The notes under the pieces were generated by a model. The model did no database searches. It was not told the DNA's origin and saw nothing but the letters and a program-made list of their open reading frames with translations. This document shows, piece by piece, positions 5,084 through 27,719 of a stretch of DNA of 64,000 bases. Within the stretch, counting starts at the first letter, position 1, and the number at the start of each line of letters is the position of its first letter. The position numbers and the translations under genes were made by a program. The DNA comes from Candidatus Anderseniibacteriota bacterium (lineage in GTDB: Bacteria; Patescibacteriota; Andersenbacteria; UBA10190): positions 474,544-538,543 of the forward strand of contig JACPWO010000001.1 of the NCBI GenBank assembly GCA_016197005.1, read 5' to 3'.

Positions 5084-5106
5084 TTCGAACTCCTAAAGAA
5101 AAAATG

Positions 5107-5180
5107 TAGGCTCGCTGGGATTCGAACCCAGGACCTCGGCTTTATAAGAGCCGCGCTCTTACCAACTGAGCTACGAGCCT
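5107..5180 (-). tRNA. tRNA with anticodon UAU (Ile-like, decoding AUA)
   Basis: Manual cloverleaf on minus strand: acceptor AGGCUCG/CGAGCCU, D-arm GCUCAGUUGGUAAGAGC, anticodon stem CGGCU/AGCCG with loop CUUAUAA (U33, anticodon UAU, A37), T-arm CUGGG-UUCGAAU-CCCAG, discriminator A. Confidence 0.75.
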
Positions 5181-18202: not shown

Positions 18203-18408
18203 GATCAATACGATCCTTAACGGGTTGATACAATCCAAACAAAGAACACGCACTATTCTCAGTCAAAGTTCCAGACCAAAAGTGGTCACAGAGAATGTGC
18301 CCTCTTTTTTGTTTTAGGGGTCATGATCGTTTAACAATTTGCTACGGAATTATACGTTAAATTACGTTCTAGTCTGCGTATTTATACGCGACTACAAACG
18401 TCTTTCTA

Positions 18409-19878
<1,470 letters not shown>

Positions 19879-20118
19879 AGGGAGAAAACTGACGTTGTGT
19901 CGTGGTTAACCAGACACAACGCCCTAGAGGTCGACTTTGTCACTTTGACAAGGCTTGCTCGTAAAGAGCCGCGGAGAGCATATCCTCCACGAAAAACATG
20001 TGATATGCAACAAATAGAAAGACTACTTTGTAGTCGCGTATAAGAACGTAGAACATAGGCCGCCCTTAGGGCGGCTTTGTGTTGCAAAAGATACATTTTA
20101 AGGGTTAAATGGCACTAC

Positions 20119-20191
20119 GCGCGTGTAGCTCAGTGGTTAGAGCACCACACTGATAATGTGGGGGTCGAAGGTTCGATTCCTTCCACGCGCA
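20119..20191 (+). tRNA. tRNA-Ile (anticodon GAU)
   Basis: Acceptor GCGCGUG/CACGCGC+A73, anticodon stem CCACA/UGUGG loop CUGAUAA; near-identical to tRNA-Val at 5231. Confidence 0.9.
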
Positions 20192-20233
20192 CAAACAAAT
20201 GCACCTTCTGAACCTTTACCAAGGATCTATTAA

Positions 20234-20626
20234 ATGTCTAAATCTAGGCCAAAAACAAAGTTAGTTCGCTTTGGTCAGTATTTACAAGATTTACGGATAA
20301 CTAGAAAAAAGGGCTCTCAAAGAAAGGTTGCTACTGCCTTGAAATCACAAGGTCATCAGGTAACACAAGGCGCTATTGCACAGTATGAAGGGGGGCTGGT
20401 CACAAACCCGCATTACGAATTGCTCTCCGCCCTAGCACGACTCTACGATGAGCCATACGAAAACATGATCGTGCAATTAGTTGCCGATAAATACAAAGTG
20501 AAACCGCCTCCTGAGCAATTATCAGGTAGTTCTCTCCCAGTTCGCCCTGCGATTCGCTTGGAATTTCGAGACATCGACAGTTTGCGCGAAGCTGGTGAGT
20601 GGTTCTTCAACAAGATGCGACAGTGA
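20234..20626 (+). CDS. XRE-like helix-turn-helix DNA-binding protein
   Basis: N-terminal basic region followed by HTH-like segment (QRKVATALKSQGHQVTQGAIAQYEGG); 130 aa. Confidence 0.5.
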   Translation: MSKSRPKTKLVRFGQYLQDLRITRKKGSQRKVATALKSQGHQVTQGAIAQYEGGLVTNPHYELLSALARLYDEPYENMIVQLVADKYKVKPPPEQLSGSSLPVRPAIRLEFRDIDSLREAGEWFFNKMRQ

Positions 20627-20642
20627 GACTGTTACTTCAGCG

Positions 20643-20675
20643 CCCTCGCAGGTAAAACTGCGAGGTTTTATTTCC
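20643..20675 (+). terminator. Terminator-like hairpin (CCCTCGCAG-GTAAAA-CTGCGAGG then TTTTATTT)
   Basis: 8-9 bp stem and T-rich tail just after the HTH gene stop. Confidence 0.4.
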
Positions 20676-20712
20676 TGATTACTCATTCTTAATTACCAGT
20701 TACTATTCACTT

Positions 20713-22149
20713 ATGACACTGCCACCAGAAGTTCAATCTGCCCTGAAAATACTCCACGATGCTGGCTTTGCCGCTTATGGCGTCGGTGGTGGCGTACGGG
20801 ATTTGCTTCTGAATAAAAAACCAAAGGACTGGGACGTTACAACGAATGCCAAGCCTGAGGAAATTCAGAAACTATTTCCAAAAAGTTTTTATGCCAATCA
20901 GTTTGGGACCGTCACTATTCTCACGACGAGCGAAGATCCTTCTCTAAAAGAAATTGAGATTACAACGTACCGGTCAGAAAAAGGATACTCGGACCAACGC
21001 CATCCCGACGAAATAGCATTTGTTTCAAACTTAGAAGAGGACTTGGCTCGTCGTGACTTCACCATTAATGCAATTGCTCTCGACGAAGAGACAGTGGTTG
21101 ATCCTTTCGATGGCCAAGCTGACCTGGCAGGCAAACTGGTGCGAGCAGTTGGCAACCCGAAGGAACGGTTTGCGGAAGATGCGCTGCGTTTGTTACGAGC
21201 AGTGCGCCTCGCAACTGAACTTAACTTTGAGATAGAACCAAAAACACTCGCCGCTGTTACACAATATGCTCCCGCTATTACCGCCGTGTCGCATGAGCGG
21301 GTACGAGATGAATTAATAAAACTGGTAAAGAGTGACTATCCGGAAAAGGGAATGAATCTTCTCAAAGAGACAGGGCTCTTAGCGCTTATCCTCCCCGAAG
21401 TTGCTGAGGGTATTGCCGTCGGACAAAATCGTCACCACATTTATACCGTCTTTGAGCATAATATTAAGTCACTCCAGTACGCGGCTACGTACAAGTACCC
21501 CTTTCACGTCCGTCTAGCTGCTCTTCTTCATGACATCGGTAAACCGCGTACGAAACGATTCGATAAAAAGATTAATGACTATACGTTTTATGCCCACGAT
21601 ATTGTTGGATCACGCATGGCGGAAAAAGTATTGAAGCGTCTTAAGTTTTCGAAAAAGATGACCGACACTATAACGCATTTAGTTCGTCATCACATGTTCT
21701 ATTACGACGTTGGCAAAGTTACTGAGGCGGGCGCCCGGCGCCTGCTGCGACGAGTCGGCAAGGAACACTTCGACGATCTCATCAAGCTTCGCATTGCTGA
21801 ACGTAAAGGCTCGGGCGTGCCCAAGGCAGAACCATATCGACTCCGTCACTTGCAGTTCATGGTTGAAAAGGCCGCTCAAGAACCTATCTCCGTGAAGGAA
21901 CTTAAAATTACCGGTCGCCACTTACAGGAACTTGGCATGAAAGCAGGACCAATTTTTGGTGGTATTTTGAATGCTCTCCTCGCCGAAGTACTAGAAGATC
22001 CAATAAAAAATACGAAAGAATATTTACTCAAACGTGCAGTGGAGCTTAAGGATAAAAATCCTGATGAACTTAAAAAATTAGGTGAGGTAGCGGCGCAAGA
22101 AGAAGAATTGAAGCGTGAGGAAGACATTAAGAAAAAGTATCGGGTATAA
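20713..22149 (+). CDS. cca: CCA-adding enzyme (tRNA nucleotidyltransferase) with HD domain
   Basis: Pol-beta NTase head GVGGGVRDLLLNKKPKDWDVTT, RRDFTINA motif, HD-domain histidines (LLHDIGKP, HDIV). Confidence 0.85.
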   Translation: MTLPPEVQSALKILHDAGFAAYGVGGGVRDLLLNKKPKDWDVTTNAKPEEIQKLFPKSFYANQFGTVTILTTSEDPSLKEIEITTYRSEKGYSDQRHPDEIAFVSNLEEDLARRDFTINAIALDEETVVDPFDGQADLAGKLVRAVGNPKERFAEDALRLLRAVRLATELNFEIEPKTLAAVTQYAPAITAVSHERVRDELIKLVKSDYPEKGMNLLKETGLLALILPEVAEGIAVGQNRHHIYTVFEHNIKSLQYAATYKYPFHVRLAALLHDIGKPRTKRFDKKINDYTFYAHDIVGSRMAEKVLKRLKFSKKMTDTITHLVRHHMFYYDVGKVTEAGARRLLRRVGKEHFDDLIKLRIAERKGSGVPKAEPYRLRHLQFMVEKAAQEPISVKELKITGRHLQELGMKAGPIFGGILNALLAEVLEDPIKNTKEYLLKRAVELKDKNPDELKKLGEVAAQEEELKREEDIKKKYRV

Positions 22150-22156
22150 TAAAGAC

Positions 22157-22408
22157 ATGTCTTTTGGATCCTTCATCTTTGGTTTTCTTATTATGATCGT
22201 TGGTATGTTTATGGTTATCCGCACCAACTGGTTCCTGGAAAACTTGGGTGATCTTGGTTCTATGATTGGTGTCTACGATAAATCCTGGCTCAGCTGGAAA
22301 GCCTTTGGTGTTTTTCTCATCTTCCTCGGGTTCTCAATTGCTTTTAGTTTATTCACGATCCTGATAAAGGCAACGATCGGCCAACTCTTTGTCTTTGGCG
22401 GATTGTAA
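22157..22408 (+). CDS. small 3-TM membrane protein, hypothetical
   Basis: 84 aa, hydrophobic helices; first internal ATG after the cca stop chosen. Confidence 0.4.
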   Translation: MSFGSFIFGFLIMIVGMFMVIRTNWFLENLGDLGSMIGVYDKSWLSWKAFGVFLIFLGFSIAFSLFTILIKATIGQLFVFGGL

Positions 22409-22409
22409 G

Positions 22410-22480
22410 TGGACCTGGGGAGAATCGAACTCCCATCCCCCGGATGCAAACCGGGTGCTCTGCCACTAAGCTACAGGCCC
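22410..22480 (-). tRNA. tRNA-Ala (anticodon UGC), opposite strand to the rRNA genes
   Basis: Acceptor stem with G3:U70 identity pair, anticodon stem CCCGG/CCGGG loop UUUGCAU, T-arm GGGAG-UUCGAUU-CUCCC, discriminator A. Confidence 0.9.
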
Positions 22481-22521
22481 TTGGTATCAACTTTGAAGCA
22501 GTATGCCTAAAGGCGTTGCTT

Positions 22522-22551
22522 TTGACAACACACGTATTTCTGCGCTATAAT
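22522..22551 (+). promoter_or_regulatory. sigma70-like promoter (TTGACA -18- TATAAT) for the downstream membrane-protein gene
   Basis: -35 TTGACA 22522-22527; perfect -10 TATAAT 22546-22551; GAGAGGAGG RBS before ATG 22616; the -35 region is a near-palindrome (TTTGACAA) that could also serve a minus-strand promoter for tRNA-Ala. Confidence 0.5.
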
Positions 22552-22615
22552 AATTTCAGATACGAGACCGATTTTCCTTCGAAATTAATACTACGAGAGG
22601 AGGTGTTACGAGACT

Positions 22616-23317
22616 ATGGCTGTAAATTCATCATTCGGTACGTGGACTGACGCTGTTGTCACGTCGTTAACAGATTTGTGGCTTCAGTTTGTCTCTTTCA
22701 TCCCGAATTTAGTCGCAGCACTGGTTGTCTTTTTTATTGGATGGGCAATTTCTATCGCAGTTGGCCGTCTAATTGAAAAAGCTCTCGTTGTGTTGCGAAT
22801 CAATGAAGCATTTGGAAGTTTGCAAGGACTGAAGCAAGCAGTAGCTCAAGCAGGGCTTAAGCTCAACGTTGCTCACGTGGTTGGCGAAATCTTCAAGTGG
22901 TTCCTCCTTATCGTGACGGTACTCGCCACGACAGATATCTTGGGACTTAATGAAGTATCACAATTCTTGCGATCAGTATTGCTTTATATTCCGAACGTAG
23001 TAGTAGCCGCACTCATCCTCGTAATTTCGGTGGTGCTGGCAAACTTCGTTTATCGAACAGTACTCGCAAGCGTCGAAGCAGCTGGCTTTACCAGCGGCGG
23101 CGCAGTTGCCTTAGTAAGCAAATGGGCGATCATCATCTTCGCTATCTTTGCTGCTTTGCTCCAATTGAATGTAGCGACGCCTTTGATTCAGACATTCCTA
23201 ACTGCCCTCTTCGCCATGATCGCCATCGCTGGCGGTCTAGCGTTTGGCTTAGGTGGCAAGGAACTGGCTGCCAAATGGCTTAAGAAGTTCGAACAAGACC
23301 TTTCTGGACGTAAATAA
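22616..23317 (+). CDS. Multi-TM membrane protein with repeated conserved TM-helix motifs (MscS N-terminal-like)
   Basis: 233 aa, ~6 TM helices with internal repeat character. Confidence 0.45.
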   Translation: MAVNSSFGTWTDAVVTSLTDLWLQFVSFIPNLVAALVVFFIGWAISIAVGRLIEKALVVLRINEAFGSLQGLKQAVAQAGLKLNVAHVVGEIFKWFLLIVTVLATTDILGLNEVSQFLRSVLLYIPNVVVAALILVISVVLANFVYRTVLASVEAAGFTSGGAVALVSKWAIIIFAIFAALLQLNVATPLIQTFLTALFAMIAIAGGLAFGLGGKELAAKWLKKFEQDLSGRK

Positions 23318-23337
23318 TAACGACTAGAAAAACAAAA

Positions 23338-23366
23338 AACGGTGCCTGCAGTAGGGCCGTTTTTTG
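23338..23366 (+). terminator. Imperfect terminator-like hairpin followed by TTTTTT
   Basis: AACGGTGCC-loop-GGGCCGTT then T6, 20 nt after stop. Confidence 0.4.
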
Positions 23367-23382
23367 CGTTTTAAGGCTCCTG

Positions 23383-23410
23383 TTGACAGCTTTTGCAGGT
23401 TATATATAGT
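23383..23410 (+). promoter_or_regulatory. Candidate separate 23S rRNA promoter (TTGACA -16- TATAGT)
   Basis: -35 TTGACA 23383-23388; -10 TATAGT 23405-23410; ~355-nt leader to 23S 5' end. Confidence 0.5.
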
Positions 23411-24382
23411 GTCTATTAGCTATATGCAGAAAGCTTTTAACTGCAAGACCCCACGAAGCGGCTAGGCCGAAATCTTTTCGAGCCCACCAAAACCGCTTCC
23501 TCTGGACAAGCGGTTTTTTAGTAGCCGCTACAACACAAGCCATCGATAGAATAATGGTTCTCAACAATTATTCCTCTGTGGCTTGTTTGATTGAACACTG
23601 CCAATTGAATAAGCAATATCATTGCAATTGAACGATCACCAATAGTAGTAATTAGAAATCAAAAACAAGGAGCGATGTTGATCAGCGCTTGGGGCGCGGA
23701 TACGCATCGCTAGCTATACAAAAATAGCAAAGCATGCAGCTCATGACGGTGTGAATGAAATTCATACACCGTAAGGGTATACAGGTGGATGCCTTGGCAA
23801 TGGACGACGATGAAGGACGTGGCAGGCTACGATAAGCTGCGGGGAGGTGCCTAGCAACCGGCGATCCGCGGATGTCCGAATGGGGAAACCCGGCTTTGTG
23901 AATAACGAAGTCACTTTCTTACTGCAAGGTAGGATAGAGTAAACCTAGCGAACTGAAACATCTTAGTAGCTAGTGGAAAAGAAAAGAACGATCTTTGTTT
24001 CTCTTTAGAATTCCGTTCTCTCTTTCCCGTTTCCTGCAAAGGAAATTGGATTTGGGAGAACTGGTAATTTTACTGTTGAAGACAACGATTACATTCCCTT
24101 AGTAGTGGCGAGCGAAACGGGAACAGCCCAAACTTACATTTATGTAAGTGTTGTAGGGTATCGTTATATAGATAAGAGATATGTGCCTAGTAGAACGGGC
24201 TGGAATGCCCGGCCATAGAAGGTGAGAGCCCTGTAAACGAAAGGTATATTTCTTAACTTACGATATTCCTGAGTAGGGCGGGACACGTGAAATCCTGCCT
24301 GAACCCGGGAGAACTATCAAAATCCTCTGTGTTTTGGCTTCGGCCAGAACATAGTGGATCTCCCAAGGCTAAATACGACCAT

Positions 24383-24429
<47 letters not shown>

Positions 24430-25866
24430 GGAAGGGGAATGAAATAGACCTGAAACCGTATACCTACATCGAGTCGGAGGCTGCTCGCAAGAGCGGCTGA
24501 CGGCGTGCTTTTTGCAGAACGAACCACCGAGTTCGCTGTACACGGCTTAGGTTAAGTCTCATTCGAGACGAAGCCAGAGCGAAAGCGAGTGTTAATAGCG
24601 CGATTATGTCGTGTGCACGAGACCCGAAACCAGGTGATCTACCCATGAGCAGGGTGAAGTGTCGCGAAAGCGTACATGGAGGCCCGAACCGGTTGGCCGT
24701 ACAATACCATCGGATGACTTGTGGGTAGGGGAGAAATTCCAATCGAACCTGGAAATAGCTGGTTCTCGCCGAAATAGCTTTCGGGCTAGCCTCGTATAAT
24801 GAACTAATCAGTGGTAGAGCACTGCAAGGGATCTTCCGTCCTTTTGGATGGGGACCCTAGCAAACTCCGAATGCTGGTTAGGAATGTACGGGAGTCAGAA
24901 CGCGGGGGCTAAGCTCCGCGCTCAAAAGGGGAACAGCCCAGATCGTAATTTAAGGTCCCTAAATCTTACCTAAGTGGGAAAGGTAGTGGGATTGCTAAGA
25001 CAGCCAGGCAGTTGGCTTAGAAGCAGCCACCTGTTAAAGAAAGCGTAACAGCTCACTGGTCAAGCGATCCTGCGCCGAAAATGTAACGGGGCTCAAGGTA
25101 AGTACCGAAAATACGGAGTATTGTCTTTTAAGACAAAATTGGTAGGCGAGCGTTTCAGTCTGCGTCGAAGGTGTACCGTGAGGTATGCTGGAGCGGCTGG
25201 AAGTGAGAATGGTGGTATGAGTAGCAAGACACAAGGTGAGAGTCCTTGTCACCGAAAGCCTAAGGTTTCCTGGGCAATGTCGATCATCCCAGGGTTAGTC
25301 GGTCCTAAGGCGAGGCCGAAAGGCGTAGTCGATGGACAGCAGGTCGATATTCCTGCACCGTCTATAGCGTTCACAAGGCTTGACGGATCGTTAGAGCATG
25401 TCAGGACATATGACTTATCCTGCAGCAACTATTAGACAGAGTGTTTTGGTAAATCCGGACACTTGTTACGTTGAAAGTTGTTGGGCGAGCGCGGCCTTCG
25501 GGCCAAGCCGCTATATGGGAAAACGGTCCCCGGAAAAGCGTCGTGTGATTTCCGCTATGGGCGTCCGTACCGCAAACCAACTCAGGTAGGCAAGTGTGAG
25601 AGTACTAAGGTGATCGGGAGAAACCTCGTTAAGGAACTCGGCAAAAAAGCAGCCGTACGTTCGCAATAAGGCTTGCCCTGTCTTTATGGCAGGGCCGCAG
25701 CGACTGATCTCTGGCGACTGTTTAACAAAAACACAGGTCCCTGCTAACTCGTAAGAGGATGTATAGGGGCTGACGCCTGGCCAGTGTCGGAAGGTCAATC
25801 CTGGGGGTGAAAGCTCTCAGGCCAAGCCCCGATGAACGCCGGCCGTAACTATAACGGTCCTATGGT

Positions 25867-26166
25867 AGAGGAATTTGGCCACGATACGTCGTGGACTTTG
25901 CTGCCATAGTAAAATTGAGCTATATGCTGGAAACTCTGGTGTACTTAAAGAGAAATCTGACAAGTGCAGCCGTCCATTAGGACGAGCTACCAGACAATCA
26001 GCAGGAAATCCGCAAGGAGATCCTCAGAGACTACACGCTCAACCCAACGTATAAATCTTTACGTTGCGGAAGATATAGTCCGATCTGCATGGCGACATGC
26101 AGAACTCTACAGAAATGGAGAGTCACGTAAACTTAACGAAAGTAGATAAGTACGTCGTAACATTCG
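25867..26166 (+). mobile_element. Group I intron (ORF-less, ~300 nt) in 23S at the site equivalent to E. coli ~L1917-1925 (GGTCCTATGGT | AGCGAAATTCC)
   Basis: Exon sequence on both sides reconstitutes the conserved ACGGTCCTA(A/T)GGTAGCGAAATTCC; upstream exon ends in U and intron ends in G; intron contains P7-like strands CAGAGACTACACG and AAGATATAGTCC. Confidence 0.75.
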
Positions 26167-26738
26167 AGCGAAATTCCTTGGCACGTAAGTTGTGTCCCGC
26201 ACGAATGGCGTCACGACTGGAGAACTGTCTCAACGAGGTACCCGGTGAAATTGCAATGTCGGTAAAGATGCCGCCACCCTGCGGCTAGACGGAAAGACCC
26301 CGTGAAGCTTCACTACAGCTTGATATTGGCACGTCGAACTCAATGCTCAGTATAGGTGGGAGACTTTGAACCAGGTGCTTCGGCGCCTGGGGAGTCACAA
26401 TATGAGATACCACCCTTTGTGTTTAACGCGTCTAACGGCGCAGTGCAATCCACTGCCCGGACAGTGTCTGGCGGGTAGTTTGTCTGGGGCGGATTCCTCC
26501 TAAATTGTAACGGAGGAGCCTATAAGGTTACCTAGGTCCGGATGGAAATCGGACTCGTCGTGTAAAGGCACAAGGTAGCTTAACTGCGAGGCGTACATGC
26601 CGAGCAGGCGCGAAAGCGGAGCTTAGTGAACCGACCGTTCTCGAATAGAAGAGCGGAAGATCATCGGATAAAAGTTACTCCGGGGATAACAGGCTGGTCT
26701 CGCCCAATAGTCCACATAGACGGCGAGGTTCGGCACCT

Positions 26739-27093
26739 TAATTAAAATCGGGGTGCCCAAGGAGTGATCCTTGAAAGTCTGAGTTATAAGTCTTTCTGAA
26801 TAATTACAGATAAAAATCGAATAGTAAGTAAACCAGCTAAAAACGGTGAACTCTTACCTATCTTGATGCATTAAAAAGATAGAAGACAACGCCGTGGGAA
26901 GCATGAATCCAAGGTGGACTCATGCCCCGTAACGACTGACTCGAAAGAGGAGGCCCACAAAACACAGTTAAGGAAATCACTGTGGGCAAAAGGCTGGCTC
27001 TCACTAATAAAAAGATGTTATGGAATTTCCTACGACATCTCGTGAGATGAAGGCATAGTCTAATCTTCTTGGAAACAAGAAGTAGAACGACAG
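26739..27093 (+). mobile_element. Second putative group I intron (ORF-less, ~355 nt) in 23S at the site equivalent to E. coli ~L2500 (GGCACCT | CGATGTCGGCTC)
   Basis: Flanks reconstitute the conserved GGCACCTCGATGTCGGCTC; 5' exon ends in U and insert ends in G; insert contains GGCATAGTC (P7 3'-strand-like). Confidence 0.6.
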
Positions 27094-27577
27094 CGATGTC
27101 GGCTCAACCTATCCTGGAGGGGAAGCACCTTCCAAGGGTGTGTCTGTTCGCCACTTAAAAGGTTACGTGAGCTGGGTTCAAACCGTCGCAAGACAGGTTG
27201 GACCCTATCTGTCGCAGGCGTGGAAACTTGAGGAGCGTCCACAATAGTACGAGAGGACCTTGTGGGACCGACCTCTAGTGTACCAGTTGTCCCGTTCTGG
27301 GGCATCGCTGGGTAGCTATGTCGGGCTGGTGATAAGTGCTGAAAGCATCTAAGCACGAAGCCCACTCCAAGATCAGGTTTCAATAACGAGACTCCTAGAA
27401 GACTACTAGGTTGATAGGCAGGAGGTGTACGCGCAGTAATGCGCTCAGCCGACCTGTACTAATGTTCCAGTTGTATGATTCTTACCACCGACATGAGCAA
27501 ATTGCTTTGTTAATAGCTAGCGATGCGTATTTACGCAGTCGTTTAATTAATGATATTGCGTCGTTTCAATTCAGAGA

Positions 27578-27694
<117 letters not shown>

Positions 27695-27719
27695 TTTTCT
27701 GAATTGAAACCCTTCAAAC

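Follow-up and report, generated by a model that had tools for sequence, protein, structure and literature searches.

The 355-nt insert that interrupts the 23S rRNA gene at positions 26739-27093 of the window, the whole 64,000-nt stretch of Candidatus Anderseniibacteriota DNA analysed here, is almost certainly a group I intron. It carries every sequence-level hallmark of the class, and its architecture appears IA-like, with helices P1-P10 supplemented by P7.1 and P7.2. On sequence comparison it is an ORF-less member of a family of homing introns that occupy the same site in the peptidyl-transferase centre (PTC), and it represents an ordinary new individual of a widespread and already described class of CPR rRNA introns. 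The original prediction of a putative group I intron is supported by the P1 and P10 pairings, by minimum free energy (MFE) and RNAalifold folds, by covariation, and by the LAGLIDADG genes found in homologues at the same site.

The rRNA genes of the window, located by Rfam scan, and the genes that lie between them are as follows.

18406-19876, 16S rRNA
20119-20192, tRNA-Ile(GAU)
20713-22149, gene of the CCA-adding/poly(A)-polymerase family, 478 aa, with an HD domain
22409-22480, tRNA-Ala(UGC), on the opposite strand
22616-23317, MscS-like membrane protein, 233 aa
23760..27482, plus strand, 23S rRNA with two inserts, both read as group I introns (RF02541, 2339.8 bits, model 1-2925)
25867-26166, first 23S intron, after U1931 (L1931), ORF-less, 300 nt (RF00028, 70 bits over 25851-26102)
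27579-27695, 5S rRNA

The rRNA genes do not form a compact operon, because the gap of ~3.9 kb between 16S and 23S (19877-23759) holds tRNA and protein genes; the flanks of the rRNA locus are densely filled with long ORFs at ~47% GC. A further tRNA-Ile, with the anticodon UAU, lies on the minus strand at 5106-5180; tRNA-Ile(UAU) is uncommon in bacteria, in which a CAU tRNA modified with lysidine usually reads AUA. The insert under study is the second in this 23S gene, as had been predicted, the first being the intron after U1931, the site of the Simkania, Thermotoga and cyanobacterial introns. The boundaries of this first intron carry a 2-nt sliding ambiguity ('AG') that was settled by requiring a U as the last base of the exon and a G as that of the intron. 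Three stretches of the 23S gene, at 23991-24092 (102 nt), 24304-24353 (50 nt), and 25390-25524 (135 nt), have no counterpart in almost any of ~170 other 23S loci, and on their account the gene, even without its two introns, is ~150 nt longer than typical. They may represent expansion segments or short intervening sequences (IVSs).

Direct reading of positions 26500-27400 bore out, to the base, the coordinates originally given for an insert that splits GGCACCT in the peptidyl-transferase region. The insert lies on the plus strand and separates GGCACCU (GGCACCT in the DNA, 26732-26738) from CGAUGUCGGCUC; the last base of exon 1 is T (U) at 26738 and the last base of the insert is G at 27093, the two terminal bases that had been predicted, and CGATGTCGGCTC begins at 27094. 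The site had been put at approximately L2500 and proves to be exactly that, the T of GGCACCT being position 2500 and the C of CGATG position 2501 of E. coli K-12 rrlH (2904 nt). The boundaries are unambiguous, because no shift restores the conserved GGCACCU-CGAUGUC junction, and the 23S sequence of the window without the insert is colinear through this junction with 27 intron-less 23S genes from metagenomes. The sequence element singled out in the original prediction is GGCATAGTC, at 27052-27060 within the insert, and the AT-richness noted there corresponds to a GC content of 40.6% in the insert against 51.1% in the 23S exons. An ORF search of the insert returned nothing longer than 48 aa, and comparison with the LAGLIDADG_2 endonuclease of the family found no similarity (best tblastn E 0.16), on which grounds the label 'ORF-less' is correct. 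The insert is single-copy within the 64-kb window and unrelated to the first 23S intron. The same sequence recurs in the MAG GCA_016178385.1 (contig JACOTL010000022.1), at 99.985% identity over 13 kb that include both 23S inserts. A gene close by assigns the window to the genome of this MAG, which is represented in the DNA runs SRR12113416 and SRR12113417.

An Rfam scan for group I and group II introns had been proposed as the check on this assignment, and its outcome depends on the threshold. Scanning the whole window at gathering thresholds labelled the first 23S insert and left 26739-27093 unlabelled. A local permissive scan, conversely, aligned the full length of RF00028 (model 1-253) to window positions 26769-27082 with 45.6 bits (E 1.8e-10), short of the gathering score of 50 bits; up to an E of 10, it found no group II intron or other credible Rfam family in the insert. 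The gathering score was reached by none of ten family members tested (L005, L015, L047, L048, L054, L075, L082, L090, L092, and L099). The threshold is thus insensitive for the L2500 family, and a score beneath it is no argument against membership; the absence of an intron model hit, which had been offered as grounds for refutation, would give a false negative at default settings. Comparative evidence was sought because the match to RF00028 is sub-threshold. The features of the insert and its exon borders are listed below, with the cells and pairs counted over an alignment of 67 homologues.

26732..26738, plus strand, 3′ end of exon 1, GGCACCU (E. coli 2494-2500), the 5′ strand of P1, with U26738 as the splice-site U
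26739..27093, plus strand, intron, read as group I and IA-like from its sequence, RF00028, folds, and covariation; no ORF
26747..26750, plus strand, P10 intron strand AUCG, pairing with CGAU of exon 2 (100% of cells paired in 67 sequences)
26751..26757, plus strand, internal guide sequence GGGUGCC, the 3′ strand of P1, with the wobble G26751·U26738; inverted repeat
26758..26773, plus strand, P2 hairpin CAAGGA-GUGA-UCCUUG with GNRA loop L2 (94% of cells paired)
26774..26832, plus strand, predicted P2.1 hairpin (~26774-26795) and A-rich J2/3 linker, from the MFE fold only, a variable periphery in which homologues align poorly
26833..26838, plus strand, P3 5′ strand CCAGCU, partner of 26992-26997
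26843..26895, plus strand, P4-P5-P5a domain: P4 ACGGUG/CGCCGU, P5 UCUU/AAGA, and predicted P5a CUAUCUU/AAGAUAG
26896..26928, plus strand, compact, ORF-free P6/P6a hairpin (P6 100% paired, 2 covarying pairs); inverted repeat
26929..26938, plus strand, J6/7 (GUA) and P7 5′ strand A-[C bulge]-GACUG, with G26934 as the G of the putative guanosine-binding pair
26940..26949, plus strand, P7.1 hairpin CUC-GAAA-GAG
26953..26987, plus strand, P7.2 hairpin GCCCACA...UGUGGGC, from the MFE fold
26992..26997, plus strand, P3 3′ strand GGCUGG, covarying with CCAGCU
26999..27047, plus strand, P8 UCUCAC/GUGAGA (93.3% paired) with predicted distal extension P8a
27048..27061, plus strand, J8/7 (UGAAGGCA) and P7 3′ strand UAGUCU, including GGCATAGTC and C27060 of the putative guanosine-binding pair
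27065..27082, plus strand, P9 hairpin CUUCUUG-GAAA-CAAGAAG with GNRA loop L9, from per-sequence folds
27083..27093, plus strand, 3′ tail UAGAACGACAG, ending in ωG (G27093); ending CGACAG or CAG in 40 of 110 family members
27094..27097, plus strand, start of exon 2, CGAU (E. coli 2501-2504), the P10 exon strand, from direct reading and pairing in 67 sequences

The splice-site helix P1 comprises 7 bp between GGCACCU and GGGUGCC and places a U·G wobble at the cleavage site, and the 3′ splice site is bracketed by ωG and a 4-bp P10 (AUCG/CGAU); the perfect pairing of P10 in the 67 sequences shows consistency rather than covariation, because its exon side is invariant. The core P3-P8 contains the P3/P7 pseudoknot, and within P7 (A-[C]-GACU / AGUC-U) a G-C pair beside a bulged nucleotide probably forms the guanosine-binding pocket. 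P7.1 and P7.2, the pair of hairpins expected of subgroup IA, are both present between P7 and P3′. When the insert is folded by itself without constraints, the MFE structure (-103.8 kcal/mol) contains P2, P3, P4, P5, P6, P8, and P9, together with two extra hairpins between P7 and P3′, and RNAalifold applied to the 67 ORF-less homologues gives P1-P6 and P8 at the hand-assigned positions of the window. P2.1, P5a, and P8a are predicted from the fold of the single window sequence. The segment equivalent to P7.2 folds with z < -1 in 91% of the 67 homologues (median z -2.8). P9 reaches just 50% paired in the alignment because MAFFT cannot register its 4-nt with its 6-nt loops; when the sequences are folded one by one, a GNRA-capped P9 hairpin appears 4-5 nt past P7′ in ~90 of the 109 members, and its stem occurs in 61 distinct versions.

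Covariation was assessed in an alignment (A1) made with MAFFT from 67 distinct ORF-less members of up to 400 nt (670 columns), against a hand-assigned structure of 58 pairs that includes the P7 pseudoknot and P10. Standard pairs fill 87.5% of cells, a share that drops to 39-45% once the 3′ partners are shifted by 1-3 columns. Because the window sequence itself served to derive the structure, the count of paired cells is inflated for that row, in which all 58 core pairs are standard; this bias is addressed by the shifted controls and by compensatory counts over the 66 other sequences. Compensatory cells, with changes on both sides, number 600 against 199±15 in shuffles, the covariation score is 0.397 against 0.156 when shuffled, and on none of five measures does any of 500 shuffles reach the observed value. 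Changes on both sides are found in 32 pairs, and compensatory changes affect 6 of 6 pairs in P2, 5 of 6 in P3, 3 of 4 in P5, 3 of 3 in P7.1, and 5 of 6 in P8. P4 is 99.3% paired with two covarying pairs, its outer pair flipping between A-U and U-A (40/27). The splice-site U·G of P1 is found in 67/67 homologues, the P7 core GACU/AGUC is likewise invariant (67/67) while its outer pair varies between A-U, U-A, and G-C (29/29/9), L2 is a GNRA loop in 65/67, and GAAGRUAUAGUC is conserved across the family. A variant of the guide was also observed in 23 of the 67 sequences (e.g. L004, L031, L035, L037, L046, L048, and L059), which read GGGGCGCC rather than GGGGUGCC and thereby have an A·C mismatch midway along P1, where the guide faces exon A2497 (A1 columns 4 and 49), although the exon is still GGCACCU.

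The spread of the family was surveyed in one genome for each of 185,579 bacterial and archaeal species, using as pattern the conserved exon through U2500 followed by any base but C. Inserts at the identical site were found in at least 120 species, and 110 of the loci listed include both exon borders; in nearly all of these 110, CGGGGTGC or TGGGGCGCC is found at a distance of 8-50 nt from the 5′ end, and GAAGRTATAGTC lies close to the 3′ end. The hosts among the matches listed are mainly Patescibacteria, comprising Uhr-, Davies-, Levy-, Magasanik-, Andersen-, Kerfeld-, Falkow-, Yonath-, Campbell-, and Berkelbacteria, among others. Other hosts include MAGs labelled Gammaproteobacteria, Legionella (L018), Polynucleobacter (L015), Lysobacteraceae (L092), and Bdellovibrionales (L067), as well as a Coxiella endosymbiont of the tick Ornithodoros amblus (L021) and the isolate Comamonas brasiliensis PE63 (L060). 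The occurrence of the family in several proteobacterial lineages, one of them represented by a cultured isolate, suggests horizontal spread. Within the family, many members match the window intron about equally well, at 65-72% identity, and none stands out as its nearest relative. The nearest 23S exons, at ~84%, belong to L119 and L055 (a Candidatus Andersenbacteria MAG), and the introns of these two loci are no closer than others. A search of metagenomes for a close intron-minus allele, using a lineage-specific exon 20-mer, returned only intron-less 23S genes at ≤77% identity.

Long members of the family, of 815-1050 nt, contain a sense-strand ORF of ~200-230 aa that matches Pfam PF03161 (LAGLIDADG_2, E ~1e-40) and lies between P4′/P6 and P7, that is, in the P6 loop. 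The encoded endonuclease has two motif-like segments, and its closest solved structures are 6x1j ('probable intron-encoded endonuclease 1', E 1.3e-9) and I-SceI (E 5.5e-9 to 1.5e-8). The P6 loop of the window copy, conversely, is a 25-nt hairpin with no detectable endonuclease remnant. The window intron therefore no longer homes on its own, having neither an endonuclease gene nor a remnant of one. The intron of the Coxiella endosymbiont (L021) has 832 nt and no ORF of 80 aa or more, and possibly holds a decayed endonuclease gene.

The terminal base of the intron is A, and not ωG, in 39 of the 110 family members (28 end in GUA, 8 in AUA, and 3 otherwise), directly before an intact exon 2 CGAUGUCGGCU (L007, L010, L012, L013, L015, L022, L024, L029, L032-L034, L036, L039, L043, L045, L047, L051, L053-L055, L061, L070, L073, L074, L080-L083, L088, L097, L098, L100, L104, L108, L112, L113, and L121-L123). 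No boundary shift restores a terminal G in these members; their guide, the guanosine-binding pair of P7, and P9 are unchanged, and several keep the LAGLIDADG_2 ORF. Going by their sequences, they appear to form a sizeable natural clade of group I introns that lack ωG, and the terminal A of a third of L2500 introns would imply that these members carry out the second step of splicing by other means than ωG. ωG is near-universal in group I introns; the sole precedent we can name for introns without it is, by its title, reportedly the 2007 paper of Raghavan and colleagues on Coxiella 23S.

Splicing of the window intron likely follows the established chemistry of its class. In the pre-rRNA, the exon end GGCACCU and the guide GGGUGCC would pair to form P1 with its U·G wobble at the cleavage site, and the P3-P8 core would fold around the P3/P7 pseudoknot, buttressed by the GNRA tetraloops L2 and L9 and by P7.1/P7.2. 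The invariant G-C pair of P7 would bind an exogenous guanosine, which would attack after U2500; ωG (G27093) would next occupy the same pocket, and AUCG would pair with CGAU of exon 2 in P10. Attack by the free 3′-OH of U2500 after ωG would then join the two exons into an uninterrupted 23S and set the intron free. We infer that the insert is excised from the mature rRNA, and that it self-splices in vivo, because the catalytic architecture is intact and the site is essential in what is presumably the only 23S copy of the genome; a single 23S copy is described as usual for CPR bacteria in the text of PMC11270868. The window copy may thus persist through clean splicing, without the ability to home.

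It is improbable, by contrast, that the ribozyme has lost its autonomy and either needs a host protein (maturase- or chaperone-like) or is cleaved without ligation to leave a fragmented 23S. The RF00028 score beneath the gathering threshold, the lack of a maturase or endonuclease ORF in the insert, and a P10 of just 4 bp, compared with 6 bp in many relatives, speak for such a reading. However, the low Rfam score is a trait of the whole family rather than decay of the window copy, and the 58 core pairs, the guanosine-binding pair, the U·G wobble, ωG, J8/7, and both GNRA loops are intact and match the family consensus. A break at 2500/2501 in the PTC is, moreover, unlikely to be tolerated.

Readings of the insert as something other than a group I element fare far worse. 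IVSs are known from helices 25 and 45 of enterobacterial and Coxiella 23S. An IVS processed by RNase III and excised without ligation would have parallels in the bacterial and CPR 23S genes in which such elements are reported to occur (PMC11270868), yet the insert lies at U2500/C2501, within the PTC rather than in either of those helices, it lacks an end-to-end stem (its terminal duplex, at -19.3 kcal/mol, is no better than the -19.4±3.9 kcal/mol of shuffles), and it has a group I fold supported by covariation, findings that effectively refute this reading. That the element could be a group II intron, an insertion sequence (IS), a MITE, or an assembly chimera has nothing in its favour except that a conserved gene is interrupted in a genome assembled from a metagenome, and all of these are effectively refuted too. 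It starts with UAAUU rather than GUGYG, and the permissive Rfam scan matched no group II family. Terminal inverted repeats and a target-site duplication are absent, the sole inverted repeat that spans a boundary being P1, and the insert occurs once in the window. An assembly artefact is contradicted by the near-identical MAG contig and by the presence, in independent genomes, of more than 110 homologous inserts at exactly this position. Each of these readings, whether IVS or other element, is so improbable as to be negligible beside that of a group I intron.

Taken as a self-splicing group I intron, the insert closely resembles introns already described in CPR bacteria. Tsurumaki et al. (2024; PMC11270868) surveyed 348 CPR 23S genes and found insertions in 82% of them; the Rfam group I model matches 45% of these insertions, and group I introns devoid of an ORF number 222. 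The authors state that such insertions 'are removed from their transcripts', for which they refer to a previous study of groundwater metagenomes, and that the intron sites 23IS6-23IS14 cluster round the PTC, with 23IS9-11, -13, and -14 new to bacteria (PMC11270868). The introns described there share with the window intron their host clade, their gene region (domain V, PTC), and their class, occur with or without a LAGLIDADG ORF, and may be several to a gene, as are the L1931 and L2500 introns of the window (PMC11270868). The positions given in the text are 1917, 1931, 1952, 2593, 2604, and 2657, with 23IS9-11 falling between 1952 and 2593 (PMC11270868); L2500 may be one of these three sites. 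A further difference is that LAGLIDADG_1 is named there as the commonest endonuclease type, whereas the L2500 family encodes LAGLIDADG_2 (PMC11270868). The 2007 compilation of bacterial rRNA introns with endonuclease genes gives L1917, L1931, L1951, and L2593 but no L2500 (PMC1995217), and literature searches for L2500 introns and for the MAG accession found nothing relevant.

Several better-known introns also invite comparison. The L2593 introns of cyanobacteria and organelles have the same layout, with a short P5, a short P2, and a P7 extension of ~65 nt (P7.1, P7.2), and they too reside in domain V of the 23S and owe their mobility to LAGLIDADG endonucleases (Haugen et al., 2007; PMC1995217). 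They differ in their site (2593 versus 2500) and in their endonuclease, which is a single-motif LAGLIDADG protein, in contrast to the two motif-like segments of LAGLIDADG_2 in the L2500 family (PMC1995217). Two group I introns in one bacterial 23S gene have been reported before, spliced from the precursor, though at different sites and from a different intron family (PMC4990558). Another parallel is offered by the ω intron of the yeast mitochondrial LSU (Sc.LSU.1), which encodes I-SceI: it too belongs to group I and interrupts LSU rRNA in the region of the PTC, and its endonuclease belongs to the same Pfam family, PF03161, as that of the L2500 family. The yeast ω intron, which is mitochondrial, lies ~50 nt upstream of L2500, near position 2449, and has retained its ORF, whereas the window copy has none; the likeness rests on the endonuclease and the region.

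The window intron is canonical and unsurprising, and the 23S gene is intact once the L1931 and L2500 introns are removed, which matters mainly for annotation. Pipelines that apply the Rfam gathering threshold leave the L2500 intron unlabelled, with the result that the 23S is mis-sized or called disrupted. Being large and well covarying, the L2500 family could seed a dedicated covariance model, and its natural set of introns without ωG could interest ribozyme mechanists. Because the intron splits the PTC between U2500 and C2501, no 50S subunit should be active before splicing, and CPR bacteria are described as having about half the usual ribosome-biogenesis factors (PMC12641178). It is conceivable, but unlikely, that such bacteria retain ORF-less introns in the PTC because these check or time, at the RNA level, the maturation of the large subunit, or that the excised RNA is regulatory; the intron would then be more than a tolerated parasite.

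Further insertions were observed very close to L2500 at other loci. Several of the metagenome contigs L153, L163, and L168-L171 read GGCACCTCGAT followed by AAATTCGATT…, with an insert after position 2504, and L113 and L121 carry, besides their L2500 intron, a second insert right after CGATGTCGGCTC, that is, after position ~2512.
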